A stretch of DNA of 64,000 nucleotides, taken from positions 1 to 64,000 of the forward strand of contig JABANN010000021.1 in NCBI GenBank assembly GCA_013115125.1, in the 5' to 3' direction. Of the stretch, positions 2,084 to 64,000 are shown piece after piece. The translations under genes were made by a program, and so were the position numbers. Source of the stretch: Perkinsus olseni (taxonomy: Eukaryota). Position 1 is the stretch's first letter. Every line of letters starts with the position of its first letter. A model generated the notes under the pieces. It was not told the origin of the DNA and did not search any database. It saw only the letters and a program-made list of their open reading frames with translations.

Positions 2084-3617
2084 ATGTCCAAGTTCAGTTA
2101 GTTGTTGTTATTCTGATTCTTGTTCACGATGGTGTCGAGTGTGTCGTGTGATAATGTTTTGGTATTGGTTGTGCAACGTGAAGATGACATGTATGAAGAG
2201 GAAGCTTCCGAAGCCTTCAGCCGTCTAGGAGTCTCTTCAGTGTAGACAGCAGCAGCCGTCGCCGTAGTGTACGTATCCCCCATCACTCACTGATGTTAGA
2301 TTTGGTAACACGCTTGAACAGTTCACTGCCCAGCTGCCTCAGTTGCCTGACGATAAGAAGTGTATGGTCCTGTGGGCTGCCGGAGATTCACAGCTTGTTG
2401 CGGTAGGTCAGACAAAAGGATATCTTATCTCGTTCGGTCGCGGACTCGACTTCCACCACGTTTTTACCGTTTTGCCGTACCGTAATTTTCCCAATTCTTT
2501 TGTTGTGCTTTCAGAGTGTACTGCAGCATTATGGTACGGATAAGCTTTCGTGGGTTCATTCGCTATCGGCTGGTGTTGATAATCTCGTCCCTGCCCTTGT
2601 CTCCAATCACCTTGCCGATAAGGTATGCCTGACTAATGCCCGTGGAGCATTCTCCAAGAGTTTGGCAGAGTAACGAGGATGGTGGCGGTTTACGGACTGT
2701 TCATCATGTTGCTGCTGTTGATGGCAGGTACTCTCTGATGTGCATGTTGCATTTCAATAAGAAAGTCCCTCTGCTGCAGAGGCTCCAAAAGGACAGGACC
2801 TGGCGTAAAATACAGATGCCTGTTGTGAGGGGCAAGACTGTTGGATTCGTTGGATTCGGGAGTATAGCCCAAGAGACGGCCAAGGTGTGCAGACCCCTCG
2901 GTAAGCATCTTTGGCTCAACCGTGGAAGATACGGAATAGGTCATTATCAAACCTCGTAGGCATGAAGATCCTTGCTTTGCGTAATCGTCCGGACGGTCCT
3001 GGTAGTGATCTAGCGGACGAGGTGCTCAACGCTGGAGTCCCCGAAGAAAAGAACAAGGTCTGACAGGCGTCCGTATTTGTCATACATCGAATTCACTTCT
3101 CTCATCAGTTGTTCCGAGAATCCGACTTCCTCGTTTGCTCCCTCCCTGGCACAAAGAATACCCAACACTTCTGTGGCTCTCACGTAAGCCGTACAAAGCT
3201 CAGGTTCGATCCCGGCATGTGTCATTTTAGGAGTTCTCCTTGATGCGTCCATCATCGGTGTTCATATCCATTGGTAGAGGAGTATGTGTGGATGAGTCGT
3301 CCCTGTATACAGCGTTGAGCACCCCTCATCGTGGCCCTGCAGCGGCGGCTATGGACGTTTTCGAGTCCGAACCGCTCAAAGAGGATTCTAAACTATGGAG
3401 TCTCGGACCTGACAAGTGAGCAGCCATTCTCAACACTCGCTACCCATTTCGACTACCTCTTTTTTCCAGACTTTTGATCAGCTCACACTGTGCAGACTTT
3501 ACAGAAGATTATGTTACCCTCACCGTCGATCTGTTCATGAAACTAGTCGTCGAGTTTAGCGCGAGGAAGTCCCCTGAAGATCTCCCGAATCAAGTCAGAG
3601 TAGCCTCTGGCTACTAA
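2084..3617 (+). CDS. D-isomer-specific 2-hydroxyacid dehydrogenase (spliced)
   Basis: Exon peptides include WVHSLSAGVD, GKTVGFVGFGSIAQETA (Rossmann fold), LVCSLPGT, FISIGRG..VDE, AAMDVFESEPL and an SSHCA-type C-terminal motif. Confidence 0.88.
3184..3230 (+). pseudogene. 47-nt intron consisting of a tRNA 3'-half relic (B-box)
   Basis: GTAAGCCGTACAAAGCTCAGGTTCGATCCCGGCATGTGTCATTTTAG. Removing it joins HFCGSH|EFSLMRP in frame. It contains GGTTCGATCCC, an acceptor-strand-like stretch and TTTT. Confidence 0.6.
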
Positions 3618-3822
3618 GGACTCTCCCTCTTCGTTAAGACTGTCAAATAATCGCCTTTTTCCATCCTAACATTAGTGTTGGGATATAATAATCTGTTGTA
3701 TTGTTTACTAAGCCATGCATAAGGCAGAGGGCATAATGATGTTTTACATGCCATGCATAGATGATGATGATGCAGATAGTCAGATAGCGGTGCTAAGCGA
3801 CTACGCCTGCTCATCTCACAGT

Positions 3823-5137
3823 ATGTCCAGCAAGGAGGATGAGGTTATTCATAATGAGGGTGAAGGAATGACGCCCTCAGTGATCTCCAGTCGATCCTGG
3901 ACGGTGAGTTTTCGCCTCCCTCCTTCGTGTTGACCGAGACCTCCGCTCAGATGATTGATAATGGAGCTAAGAGTAAGCATGAGAATGACGATGATTATAC
4001 CACACTTCCTTTGGCCAGCAGCAGCAGCAGCCGCCGTAGTATTAGTAACGTTGATTCTATTCATGAAGAGCGACAGAGAAGATTGGCCCTGATGCTCAGA
4101 GAGAGAGTTCTGGACTCGAGCAACTCTGGTCAGTCGCTACATCAGCTTGGCCGCCGTTCATTGGCATTAATTCCCGTTGTTGTTTAGAGTATGATGACTG
4201 GACTGCAACGGTTCGAGACTTACTACAGCCAGATAACAGCAGTCATGTGGTGGACTGCGAGACGGCAGAAGACGGAAGAAGAACAACCTCCATCACGGGG
4301 CAGTAGGATTGATGATGGTGATGCCCCTGGCTTTCGTGCGTAACGCCATTCAGGTCATGTCATGGTGAGGGTAGTAGCATTGCGGGTGGCAATCTCTCCG
4401 ATCTGGTAACGGATGAAAGTGTGAGTATATCATCATCGAGTGCTGCTGCTGCATCATCATCAGAGAAGGCCTCCTCCAGTAGGGTGTTCATCTCCTGTGA
4501 TGATATTAGTACTATCTTACTATCAGCTGATGGAGGTCATACCCGATCATCACTCGATGACCTCGTGTGCACAGTACTGCGTGATATGGGTTGTGCGGCA
4601 TCGTCGACGGGGACGGTAGCAATGATGGACAAAGATCGAACAGCCGCCGCCGCCGCCGCCGTCATCGTCGTCAGTCAGATATCTGCTGCGGCGTCTGTAG
4701 CCGATATCAATGACGTTGGTGGGCTCCCTCAGAGCACATCAGGAGTAGAGTCGTTGTCAGCACTGTGCCGGAGGTTAGTAGGTCGGAGGTTCAATCCAAT
4801 CACCTGATGTTCACTTCAGGCATCCCATCGCAACAGCGTTAATGGGCTGCGTCCTCGTCTACCACTTCGGTGGTATTGCTACCGGAGCACTCAAGAGACG
4901 ACGTATGAGGATGGGGCCGATTTTGATGCCCAACAGGCGGACCTGCGCGAAGATATCATTCTGGATGATGAAGCACATTGTGGATTTGATAAGCATCGGA
5001 GGTGGTAGTTGTAGTCAGGTGTAACCTCATCAGCGTATATGTAGTTCAAGGACAGTGTTGCTATGGTATCATGTGTTGGCGTACCCTACTGTGTCAGGTT
5101 CAAGAAGGACGCCCCCACCTTTACCCGAGTTCATTAG
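3823..5137 (+). CDS. Hypothetical low-complexity spliced protein
   Basis: Chain of + strand ORFs (3927, 4421, etc.) linked by GT-AG introns. No recognisable domain. Confidence 0.4.
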
Positions 5138-61975: not shown

Positions 61976-62395
61976 GACGAGGTGGTTGACGCAGAGACTT
62001 CATCTGTCTCTTCGAGTGAACGAAAACGACATGTAAAAAGCGCGAGCCTTTACGATCGATTTACATTGTCAGTCGGAGGCAGGAAAGGTAAATTAATTTA
62101 TTTTCCGCAGGGCATAATTAGTGTTAGAATCCTCGCGTTACACTCGCGCACTGGGCTTATGTGAGTGGCTCTGCGGTCCGTGCCCTCGACAAGGCGGGTG
62201 GTTAACTTTGGAACCACAAGGAGAGAGAGGATTTCGGACGGAGCTTGGGGACGTTCAATGGCGGAACATTGATGGCGAATAGACAGTCGCCATAGGCCAG
62301 TTCCGCAATGATCAGGATTGCCTTTTCTGTATCTTACGTGAGCAACCTGAAGATACCTCTTGCTTTAGTTAGACGACAGAAGCTGCTTTATACCA

Positions 62396-64000
62396 ATGGC
62401 CTCCTCGTCTGGTGAAAGTCGTCTCGAGAAGGCGAACAAGAAGTCGCCATTTGTACAGATAATGCAGCTGGCCATCCCCAACATGATTAGCTTCCTCGTC
62501 ATGTACTAAGGGCAGTCTACTAGACGATTAACGAAAAGAGTGGTATGGCGCTGGTTTCCGCAGGTACTCTATATTCGTTATTACTATCTTCTTCGTGTCG
62601 GCCACCAATGACTCCAACATGCTTGGTGCGATTGGTCTTGGATCGGTCATCCAAAATGTGTTCGGATTCAGTATCGGAGTCGGACTCATGTCTGTAAGTA
62701 GCAGTGTGGTCCAGTGGTTTGTCCGTCGGTTCTTCAACGCGCCAATCCGGGTTCGATTCTGAGTGGTGAATATAACAAATCCTCCAACAATCTTCAACGT
62801 CGCCTTATCACAGTTGAACGAGGGCTCGTGCAGGTCCTCGATACCCTGGTCAGCCAGGCAGTCGGTGCTGGCAACCCCCACCTGGGGCTCATCTACTTCA
62901 ATCGTGCCCGTATCGTCGGCACCATTGCCTTCGTTCCTTGCTTCATTGTTATGTAATGCTCTTCTTGCCGCCCCTTGGGTGCCTCGAAATGAGTTCCCTT
63001 CAGGTTCTACACTGAGCCTATCCTCCTATGGATGAATCAGGATCCACTAACATCAAAGCTGGCAGCTGAGTAAGGCGGACGATGGTCTCGTCTCGGCTCA
63101 TGATTGGACCCTCGCCACCATTCAGTTACGTCCGGGGCATGAACTGGGGTCTTTGGCCATTCTTCATGTACAACGCCATGTGCAGTTTCTTGAGGTGATG
63201 ACGGCATTCACCCGAAAGACTCGTCATCACCTCCGTCTCAGATCTCACAGACTGCCTGAGGCGCCCCTCTACGTCAACGCCATCACTGGATGCGGCCACG
63301 CCCTCTTCTGTTGGCTCTTCCTATTCAAGTGAGTGGCCTCCCCTCCGCCCTCCTTGCGGCTCCATTCCGTCAATCCTCAGGTTCCACTTCGGCGCCTATG
63401 GTGTCGGTATTGCAATGACCTGCACTCAATGGGGCAGATTCATCCTTCTTGAACTCTACGCAGCCCTCTGGCATCCCGAGACCCACGCTCACGGCTGGAC
63501 TCCGGAGAGCCTCCACAACCTCTGGGAGTTCGTGGCTCTCGCCATCCCCTCCGCCCTCCTCATGTGGAGCGAATGGTGGGCCTATGAGGTCCAGTCGGTG
63601 TTCGCCGGGTGGGTCGGCCCCATGTCCTTGGCTGCCCACGTTGCCGCCTCTAACATCGTCTCCATCATCTATATGGGACCCTGCGGTATCAGCCAAAGCG
63701 CGAGTGCCCTCGTCGGTGAGTCGGAGCCCACTGCCACTGAACGTCCTTCACCATTATTTCCTCAGGCAACGCCTTGGGTGGCGGTGATGTCCGTACCGCT
63801 CACCTCTTCAATCGGAAGATCATCAGAGGGACCCTCGCCTGCTTCATCCTGGTCGCCATCCTCATGTGCAACTTCCGTTACTACGTCGCTTACCTCTACA
63901 GCCGTGATCCTGCGGTAGCATCATCACTAACCACGACGACCTCAAAGATACCATCCCTTCCTCAGGTCCTGTCCATCCTATGCCCCGCTCTTTTGGCCGT
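62396..64000 (+). CDS. MATE family efflux transporter (spliced; runs off the window)
   Basis: MQLAIPNM, LGAIGLG, VLDTLVSQAVGAG, FVALAIPSALLMWSEWWAYE, GISQSASALVGNALG. Confidence 0.93.
62700..62772 (+). pseudogene. Full-length decayed tRNA relic in a MATE intron
   Basis: A-box TGGTCCAGTGG and B-box GGTTCGATTCT at tRNA spacing inside intron 62694-62833; stems largely lost. Confidence 0.6.

Follow-up and report, generated by a model that had tools for sequence, protein, structure and literature searches.

The stretch of 64,000 nucleotides (nt) of Perkinsus olseni DNA considered here (contig JABANN010000021.1, positions 1 to 64,000; hereafter the window) contains a dispersed set of transfer RNA (tRNA) gene relics that are enriched in introns, lie mostly on the sense strand and frequently end close to the 3' splice site. 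The relics are characterized by a B box that is followed, at the spacing of a tRNA gene, by C72, a purine at position 73 and an oligo-T run. On balance, the sequences make it probable that decayed fragments of tRNA genes colonised existing introns and were trimmed there, with the terminator of RNA polymerase III (Pol III) being retained as polypyrimidine tract; the insertion route, the trimming and the role of the T-run in splicing are what we infer from these features. The window is eukaryotic, has a G+C content of about 50% and contains very short introns. All counts given below refer to this single 64-kb Perkinsus window.

Enrichment of B-box motifs in the window

The B-box or T-loop consensus is GGTTCRANNCC. 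This motif was detected 11 times at ten loci of the window, whereas 1.03 matches were expected from dinucleotide shuffles, none of which reached the observed number (n = 100; standard deviation 1.12; maximum 6). The expectation agrees with the value of about one chance match per window that had been estimated in a preceding inspection of this DNA (the earlier note). The eight coordinates listed there, namely 3203(+), 21962(-), 24853(-), 26803(-), 28573(-), 40665(-), 54257(+) and 55261(-), turned out to be exact matches in non-coding DNA, and the two loci added by the present search, 50160(+) and the palindrome 53562/53563, are coding, which leaves eight of the ten loci in non-coding sequence. 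The reversed-order control motif CCNNARCTTGG occurred three times (0.84 expected). When one mismatch was allowed, 47 matches were obtained in comparison with 25.25 expected, or 36 versus about 24 after subtraction of the exact ones. The combination of a B box, 8-14 nt and TTT was found ten times, with 0.94 occurrences being expected. Three of the exact loci were taken as chance matches or may represent such matches:

50160 to 50170 (+): exact match at the start of a predicted exon, taken as chance.
53562 to 53573 (palindromic, no strand assigned): exact match in a coding Gly/Lys-rich repeat (…GAGSNPG…), taken as chance.
40665 to 40675 (-): orphan exact B box in intergenic DNA, without T-run or other tRNA feature; a chance match is possible.

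The near matches previously reported in introns fared differently. The sites at 56831, 57283 and 62750 deviate from the consensus by one base and that at 17066 by two bases with the spacing to the T-run being kept, whereas the sites at 25680 and 34495 are weak, with at least two mismatches and no tRNA-like spacing. Additional sense-strand cases were found at 15192, 27568 and 57177.

Conservation of the tRNA-gene layout downstream of the B box

In standard tRNA numbering, the nine bases following the B box represent positions 63-71 and are succeeded by C72, the discriminator base at position 73 and the Pol III terminator from position 74 onwards. Exactly this order, i.e. B box, 9 nt, C, purine and TTT, was found in five of the eight non-coding exact matches (3203, 21962, 24853, 26803 and 28573). 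The C-purine-TTT pentamer has a background frequency of 0.0015-0.0019 per position (window and intron 3' ends), and its presence at the fixed offset in five of eight cases has a binomial probability of less than 1e-10 even at f = 0.0042. The identical layout (C72, purine 73, then oligo-T) is displayed by the intact tRNA-Trp gene of the window described below. The combination of B box, exact 11-nt spacing, C72, purine 73 and oligo-T supports the view that the relic sequences derive from tRNA genes, and the earlier observation that they are followed by a T-run rather than by CCA or poly(A) was reproduced at their 3' ends. Moreover, a position weight matrix (PWM) built from eight B-box modules was used to scan the window and yielded four non-seed matches in non-coding DNA, 55271(-), 15192(+), 57177(+) and 42178(+), the last of which is devoid of a B-box core.

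These data leave little room for the explanation that the motifs reflect chance or an artefact of base composition. Although two of the ten exact loci are coding (50160 and 53562/3) and the site at 40665 shows no further tRNA feature, the observed numbers were reached in none of the 100 window shuffles and in none of the 300 intron-wise shuffles presented below, the reversed control motif is not comparably enriched, and C-purine-TTT recurs at the exact offset in five of the eight non-coding matches. We consider this explanation scarcely credible.

Introns carrying 3' parts of tRNA genes

The relics were found in the following introns or candidate introns:

3184 to 3230 (+): 47-nt intron; GTAAGC and 13 nt, B box (3203-3213), 11 nt ending in CA, TTTTAG.
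4774 to 4836 (+): candidate intron region; sense GGTTCAATCCA (4788-4798); the gene models disagree (4719-4836 versus 4774-4819).
15180 to 15234 (+): predicted 55-nt intron; B-box-like CGTTCGATGAC (15192-15202), 11 nt, TTTTA; detected by the PWM scan and read from the sequence alone.
17009 to 17104 (+): predicted 96-nt intron; sense AGTTCGATCTC (17066-17076), T-rich run after 13 nt; taken from the gene model alone.
21941 to 21989 (-): 49-nt intron; exact B box (21972-21962), 11 nt ending in CA, then TTTCGATCAG.
24835 to 24884 (-): 50-nt intron; exact B box (24863-24853), 11 nt ending in CG, TTTTTAG.
27498 to 27644 (-): 147-nt intron of the NAA15 gene; sense GGTTCAATCCT (27578-27568); junction in agreement with the deposited protein P0017.
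56807 to 56861 (+): 55-nt intron; AGTTCGATCCC (56831-56841), 11 nt ending in CG, then TTATTTCAG.
57100 to 57204 (+): 105-nt intron; GGTTCTATTCC (57177-57187), 11 nt and TTTCAG at the extreme 3' end; junction in agreement with the deposited protein P0137.
57272 to 57317 (+): 46-nt intron; sense GGTTCAATTCT (57283-57293); P0137 is continuous as ...PTLPGSSAAV...

Support for the introns was drawn from the continuity of Pfam profiles or from deposited Perkinsus proteins of other assemblies, the models of which are themselves predictions. The intron 3184-3230 is backed by Pfam: the upstream exon matches positions 88-110 of the 2-Hacid_dh_C profile and the downstream exon positions 113-168 from its first residue, which indicates that the 47 nt are removed. 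Seven further junctions are crossed by deposited proteins (21941-21989, 24835-24884, 27498-27644, 56807-56861, 57100-57204, 57272-57317 and 62694-62833). Accordingly, the P. olseni Sushi-domain protein P0136 is continuous as ...EGHTLGGRMEGE... across 21941-21989, the P. olseni NAA15 protein P0017 as ...KKPEGAFGMK... across 24835-24884 and P0137 as ...LRALDKDEDF... across 56807-56861. To judge from this continuity, the introns supported in this way are genuine. The Pfam search with short flanking exons gave no match for the exons of the Sushi-domain gene, the gene 55366-58059, the exons around 17009-17104 and 27498-27644, the NAA15 exons around 24835-24884 and the upstream exon of the MatE gene.

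The relic introns of 46-61 nt that had been noted previously were recovered at 3184-3230 (47 nt), 21941-21989 (49 nt), 24835-24884 (50 nt), 56807-56861 (55 nt), 57272-57317 (46 nt) and 26765-26825 (61 nt, see below). The introns of 46-55 nt contain no A box, and the sequence upstream of these introns is exon. In the intron 56807-56861 (+), the first 17 nt (56807-56823) can be folded into a fully paired 5-bp stem and a 7-nt loop (GTAAC/GTTAC) at the place that is expected for the anticodon arm relative to the B box, given a variable loop of 5 nt. The donor site at 56807 would then correspond to the 5' side of what was once an anticodon stem, although this single case could be due to chance.

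Strand bias and position of the relics within introns

The intron set used for the strand statistics was obtained with a purpose-written gene finder, which predicted 75 introns in the first pass and 191 in the second pass. Within 177 predicted introns (14,510 nt), the motif RGTTCRANNYY was found 11 times in sense and twice in antisense orientation, in comparison with 0.99 matches in intron-wise shuffles, none of 300 of which reached 11. Likewise, GGTTCRANNC occurred eight times in sense and once in antisense orientation (0.38 in shuffles, with none of 300 reaching the observed number). Across the whole window, the matches to GGTTCRANNC are distributed as follows:

Introns (14,723 nt in total): 9 matches on the sense strand, 1 on the antisense strand.
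Exons (33,006 nt): 5 matches.
Intergenic DNA (16,271 nt): 4 matches.

The relic-bearing share of the predicted introns amounts to about 6-8%. A loosely defined B box is present in 9 of the 45 introns that agree with deposited proteins of four genes, a fraction that is biased upward because these genes were picked as relic hosts.

The end of the B box is located 17-24 nt from the 3' splice site in six of the 11 sense relic introns. These include the 105-nt intron 57100-57204, which has room for a B box anywhere and yet carries it near the acceptor. The distance between the T-run and the acceptor AG is 0-6 nt in the introns 3184-3230, 24835-24884, 57100-57204, 56807-56861 and 21941-21989. The previous suggestion that the terminator serves as polypyrimidine tract is thus borne out as far as the coincidence in position is concerned, on the sense strand and at the 3' ends of short introns, and a role of the T-run in splicing would follow by interpretation. 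The B box itself was rejected as a branch-point signal: the usual branch point is YUNAY, to which the B box does not fit, and most introns are devoid of a B box.

Relic introns are more often long than other introns, since four of the 11 have a length of at least 96 nt, in comparison with two of 36 other supported introns (one-sided Fisher test, p of approximately 0.02). The full-length relics described below also sit in long introns, i.e. the 140-nt intron and the NAA15 stretch at about 26765-26974. The longest repeats at the junctions of the 11 relic introns were 4.45 nt (direct) and 3.64 nt (inverted) versus 4.17 and 4.22 nt in the 36 other introns, and neither target-site duplications (TSDs) nor terminal inverted repeats (TIRs) beyond those of ordinary introns were detected in this comparison.

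tRNA-Trp genes and full-length relics

At normal thresholds, ARAGORN and Rfam identified only two tRNA genes in the window, both of which specify tRNA-Trp:

23967 to 24038 (+): intact tRNA-Trp(CCA) gene; called by ARAGORN, Rfam score 63.4 bits, oligo-T directly after position 73.
23266 to 23338 (+): mutated tRNA-Trp copy; Rfam score 47.4 bits, no T-run, 5' acceptor strand one base shorter.

The T-loop reads TTCGTAT in the mutated copy and TTCGAAT in the intact gene. The exact 11-mer is present in neither of them, as both contain CGTTCG.., which corrects the picture given previously. The two copies are 701 nt apart and have only the 72-nt tRNA body in common (97% identity), whereas their flanks are unrelated, as if the copied unit were the tRNA itself. 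A solitary and apparently intergenic fragment of nuclear-type large subunit (LSU) rRNA with a size of 200-440 nt was found at 44357-44800 (-); it corresponds to positions 1978-2388 (approximately) of the Rfam model LSU_rRNA_eukarya (85.4 bits), with the best-aligned part at about 44357-44560. This rDNA-derived relic along with the flank-free tRNA-Trp copies indicates that pieces of abundant RNA genes do get scattered in this DNA.

Two relics extend over the full length of a tRNA:

62694 to 62833 (+): 140-nt intron; GTAAGT, directly followed by a tRNA-sized stretch (62700-62775).
26792 to 26874 (-), within 26765 to 26874: full-length tRNA-like relic; ARAGORN cloverleaf at the 90% threshold.

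The first of these relics contains the A box TGGTCCAGTGG (62707-62717) and the B box GGTTCGATTCT (62750-62760). Its host intron interrupts a MatE gene, the downstream exon of which matches the Pfam MatE profile; the deposited proteins P0003, P0006, P0013 and P0015 all read GLMS|VLDTLV at this junction, which is the same in the MatE proteins of P. olseni, P. chesapeaki and P. marinus. The second relic was drawn by ARAGORN with a long variable arm, about five of seven acceptor pairs and a D-arm region, and it contains an exact B box (26813-26803) followed by TTTTT. At the 90% threshold, ARAGORN produced five calls in the window versus 0-2 in ten shuffles; at 85% and 80% the calls in the window were no more numerous than those in shuffles and were disregarded, and the relic at 62750 was not called at 75%.

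In the annotation of the NAA15 region, 26765-26825 represents a 61-nt intron and the remainder of the second relic an exon. In the deposited NAA15 protein of P. olseni, about 75 residues (26615-26975, -) form an insertion that nine other eukaryotic homologues lack and part of which is the translated tRNA-like relic 26792-26874. Since the relic 'exon' falls within this insertion, the whole stretch 26765-26874 is probably intronic, and the NAA15 insertion probably represents intron sequence that was annotated as exon.

ARAGORN at 90% additionally called a 'tRNA-SeC' at 13586-13679 (+) and a 'tRNA-Ile' at 60517-60604 (+), neither of which contains a B box with up to one mismatch; these calls could represent additional relics in a decayed state or could be erroneous. 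At 19969-19979 (-), TGGCCGAGCGG has the appearance of a canonical A box and is followed about 26 nt downstream by AGTTCGCATCG; a tRNA relic that was shortened by an internal deletion may be present at this site.

The decay series described in the earlier note can thus be traced from the intact gene (23967-24038) via the mutated copy (23266-23338) and the full-length relics (62700-62775 and 26792-26874) to the remaining introns with 3' parts. A search for A-box motifs in the window revealed no matching 5' tRNA halves. These data bear on the view that the elements are working tRNA parts, either as split or permuted tRNA genes or as tRNA-like RNAs released from introns. Such a function would be in line with the B box, the discriminator-like purine and the terminator all being in place, but the T-stems are unpaired (16 of 45 pairs formed, as by chance), ARAGORN and Rfam detect the two tRNA-Trp genes only, and 5' halves are missing from the window, which makes it highly improbable. 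From their sequences, the relics are mostly 3' parts that lost similarity in blocks rather than evenly, and they are not working tRNAs or tRNA halves.

Relics outside introns or in antisense orientation

Three exact B boxes deviate from the prevailing arrangement:

54233 to 54317 (-): 85-nt intron in a gene with a Gar1/Naf1 domain; exact B box at 54257-54267 on the (+) strand, opposite to the gene.
28550 to 28583 (-): relic outside introns; exact B box, 11 nt ending in CA, then TTTTTTCCGTCAG.
55225 to 55271 (-): relic between divergent genes; exact B box, long pyrimidine tract, AG.

The site at 54257 is the sole clear antisense case, which amends the earlier description; its host intron is followed by an exon that matches positions 6-55 of the Pfam Gar1 profile from its first residue. 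The relic at 28573 shares the strand of the NAA15 gene and precedes the modelled start by about 215 nt and that of the deposited protein by about 320 nt; the relic at 55261, likewise on the strand of its gene, precedes the Gar1/Naf1-domain gene by about 140 nt. Both relics upstream of start codons are followed by a pyrimidine tract and AG. Perkinsus mRNAs receive a trans-spliced leader (PMC3101222); that the two sites are trans-splice acceptor regions is only a guess.

Sequence groups and sources of the relics

An alignment of 15 sequences showed a mean column identity of 33%, with only the T-loop and the columns of C, purine and T-run being common and only the T-loop being invariant. The largest group (3203, 15192, 28573, 56831 and 17066) is characterized by an A that is followed by NGTTCGAT, two free bases and CGGC-purine, and its conserved block extends beyond the B box into positions 63-67. 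The sites 24853 and 54257 have CGACCCGGGTTCGAATCC in common, and the sites 27568 and 4788 share AGGTCG, two free bases and GGTTCAATCC; the intron 27498-27644 moreover has AGGTCGnnGGTTCAATCC in common with the site 4788. The length of the core within the small groups is 20-28 nt, and the 5' parts of the relic introns are mutually unrelated. This composition supports an origin of the relics from several tRNA sources, as at least three sequence groups can be recognized. A single family of short interspersed nuclear elements (SINEs) or introners was rejected on account of the low identity, the lack of a shared body and the lack of a TSD or TIR excess, and the statement that the relics are not copies of one SINE has thereby been substantiated by their heterogeneity and the missing common body.

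Weighing the origin of the relics

Several observations weigh against an origin from tRNA-gene fragments that colonised introns and were trimmed there. T-runs outnumber A-runs on the intron sense strand only about threefold (64 versus 22), and the strand bias may therefore partly reflect tolerance of T-runs. The gene finder over-predicts introns in the second pass and its acceptor model prefers T-rich 3' ends, and the support for splicing consists of protein homology and deposited models. Searches of the whole window and of the region 24700-28700 with the Rfam tRNA model RF00005 reported no relic at E values up to 10. When the three pairs of the T-stem that are not fixed by the B-box motif were counted in each sequence, 16 of 45 were formed in the relics versus 16.9 by chance, whereas the tRNA-Trp copies form three of three each. 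Alignment of the relics to tRNA-Trp, the sole tRNA with an intact gene in the window, revealed no significant resemblance (z of -0.6 to 3.6), and A-box motifs are at most mildly enriched in the window (13 versus 7.05), with two real genes and one relic being included in this number and most of the remaining matches resembling coding or chance sequence in their context. Finally, similarity within the largest group ends at position 51/52 in all five members, which independent trimming does not predict. The likeness to tRNAs beyond the 11-mer, on which the earlier note had made its interpretation depend, is consequently divided: the 3' gene architecture is found far beyond chance, whereas the Rfam search and the T-stem pairing gave no such signal.

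An intact 9-base B box next to a randomised stem is not expected under substitutional decay and necessitates either block-wise loss by indels and truncation or selection on the B box. In the latter case, the B boxes would be kept as binding sites of TFIIIC that organise chromatin or act as insulators, similar to extra-TFIIIC (ETC) sites, while the flanking tRNA sequence decays. The intact B boxes beside T-stems at chance level, the loss of most A boxes, the roughly tenfold excess of exact matches in comparison with the much smaller relative excess of one-mismatch sites (36 versus about 24) and the location of 55261 between divergent genes are in accordance with such sites. On the other hand, a sense bias of 8:1 to 11:2 in introns is unexpected for a double-stranded binding site, positions 63-67, which lie beyond the B box, are also conserved in the largest group, and the T-run keeps its distance; in addition, the exact set was selected by the motif, so that its intactness is partly a matter of ascertainment. 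Selection for TFIIIC binding is accordingly regarded as quite improbable.

A different explanation assumes the creation of introns. Terminator-bearing inserts derived from tRNAs would have entered exons and been tolerated only because they were spliced out, with the T-run and AG providing the 3' splice site, and the relic introns of 46-55 nt would be new introns of a tRNA-derived introner kind. The relic occupies more than half of these introns and leaves little room for an older intron, the acceptor AG lies 0-6 nt past the T-run in five relic introns, and the five copies of the largest group have a common 5' limit, as if they came from one truncated progenitor; moreover, introners are known from the neighbouring lineages Amoebophrya and dinoflagellates (PMC7789003; bioRxiv 10.1101/2020.10.14.339549). 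However, the unrelated 5' parts imply that no common element supplies the donor site, TSDs and TIRs do not exceed those of ordinary introns, full-length relics are found in long introns that possess their own, ordinary-looking 3' ends (62694-62833, 27498-27644), and relics occur outside introns (28573, 55261) and in antisense orientation (54257) as well. We therefore consider creation of introns by such inserts unlikely.

For the colonisation of existing introns, the following course of events is proposed. DNA of tRNA genes, or cDNA of U-tailed primary transcripts, would enter existing introns, internal deletions would then shrink the introns back towards the usual 45-60 nt, and the block from the B box to the T-run would survive next to the unchanged acceptor because the T-run may serve splicing as polypyrimidine tract. 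As a variant, reverse transcription of U-tailed Pol III transcripts might start from A-runs that lie opposite polypyrimidine tracts and yield 5'-truncated copies. This variant is in line with a 3' end that is constant and a 5' extent that varies among the relics, and it would explain their orientation and position together, although the only about threefold excess of T-runs over A-runs on the intron sense strand weighs against it. The long relic introns along with the lack of TSDs lean towards colonisation with subsequent trimming. A ready supply of donors would be provided by amplified tRNA genes in the genus, as a study on P. marinus lists near-intact copies of tRNA genes for tRNA-Leu (349 copies), tRNA-Gly (116), tRNA-Ile (46 and 9) and tRNA-Tyr (23) (PMC3706591). 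We doubt a more far-reaching reading, according to which an active genome-wide route reverse-transcribes oligo-U pre-tRNAs from antisense A-runs of polypyrimidine tracts, yields 5'-truncated copies in sense orientation whose U-tail fuses with the tract, and thereby continually builds or renews 3' splice-site modules, perhaps including trans-splice acceptors. If true, genes would be concerned by the thousand, new introns would arise from part of the inserts in exons, and the route would be a tRNA-derived counterpart of introners.

Gene models and further features of the window

An unbiased 7-mer enrichment analysis of the predicted introns was dominated by CAG/CTG microsatellites (AGCAGCA, 20 versus 1.05 expected), and B-box words were not among its top 25. 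Some of the CAG/CTG-rich predicted introns may represent in-frame coding sequence rich in Gln, Ser or Ala that was mis-spliced by the gene model. A gene encoding a PHO4-type phosphate transporter of 677 amino acids is located at 58465-60495 (+) as one long exon with a weak C-terminal EF-hand match. The transporter clusters with proteins of Perkinsus olseni, P. chesapeaki and P. marinus, and a metagenome scan with the PHO4 protein revealed no syntenic contig of a relative. The deposited model P0005 (1168 amino acids) apparently fuses the transporter with the downstream MatE gene at 62396-63998 (+), which explains the presence of MatE proteins in the 90% cluster of the transporter. The region 8819-12303 (-) contains a tandem pair of coding units that are clearly paralogous and span several hundred residues each; motifs such as ...HETTD.FDSIHGMRYTFDTEGVMRPLE... 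are repeated in both units, neither of which has a Pfam match.

Comparison with known systems

SINEs derived from tRNAs combine a tRNA-related head with an unrelated body and a tail of LINE type (long interspersed nuclear element) or of poly(A), and each family has a consensus; in antisense Alu copies the poly(A) supplies a U-run as polypyrimidine tract. The relics resemble both in being Pol III-type elements with a B box in introns whose own homopolymer run coincides with the polypyrimidine tract. They differ from SINEs in that the oligo-T follows directly after position 73, as in the gene, and in that they come from several tRNA sources without a shared body, and from Alu in that the U-run comes from a sense-strand terminator. 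ETC sites of yeasts and animals are orphan B boxes that are defined by TFIIIC occupancy; like the relics, they are isolated B boxes without a working Pol III gene, some of them between divergent genes, but to our knowledge they have not been described as strand-biased components of introns with a retained terminator. Captured filler DNA at sites of break repair, as in introns derived from organelle DNA, likewise turns unrelated cellular sequence into intron sequence, yet it is found in single cases, whereas here one class of donors recurs about a dozen times in 64 kb with fixed orientation and position.

The introners of Micromonas, Aureococcus, dinoflagellates and Amoebophrya share with the relics that numerous short introns consist for the most part of a recognisable insert in sense orientation. 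Copies of an introner are nearly identical from end to end and usually carry TIRs or TSDs, whereas the relics have cores of 20-28 nt in small groups. In term searches, an introner review (PMC11282704) contained no tRNA-derived or SINE type, with 'tRNA' appearing in unrelated contexts only, and an introner survey of 2025 (PMC12130899) contained no tRNA-derived, SINE or Pol III type. A search of the accessible literature yielded nothing on Perkinsus introners or tRNA-derived introns and nothing relevant on the repeats of P. olseni. Closest with respect to the source of the relics is a study of the same genus, in which individual tRNA genes are present in hundreds of copies (Kojima and Jurka 2013, PMC3706591); in its available parts, it covers near-intact genes and insertions of the Dada transposon, and not 3' fragments, intron location or strand bias. 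The relics are thus best filed as a combination of tRNA-derived repeats and repeat-derived intron sequence that lies outside the introner, SINE and ETC families as these are defined.

Implications for intron evolution in Perkinsus

The origin of intron sequence is an old open question, for which transposons, in the form of introners, and occasionally captured DNA are the documented bulk sources. In the window of P. olseni, one class of cellular genes supplies a recognisable share of the introns with a fixed polarity and places a Pol III terminator where a splicing signal of Pol II transcripts is located. An immediate consequence concerns genome annotation, as one relic is apparently translated in the deposited NAA15 model. 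If the finding is true genome-wide, the amplification of tRNA genes in Perkinsus would be tied to the make-up of its introns, the relics would serve as dated markers for intron turnover and deletion bias, and the colonisation and the creation of introns would become directly comparable across P. olseni, P. marinus and P. chesapeaki.

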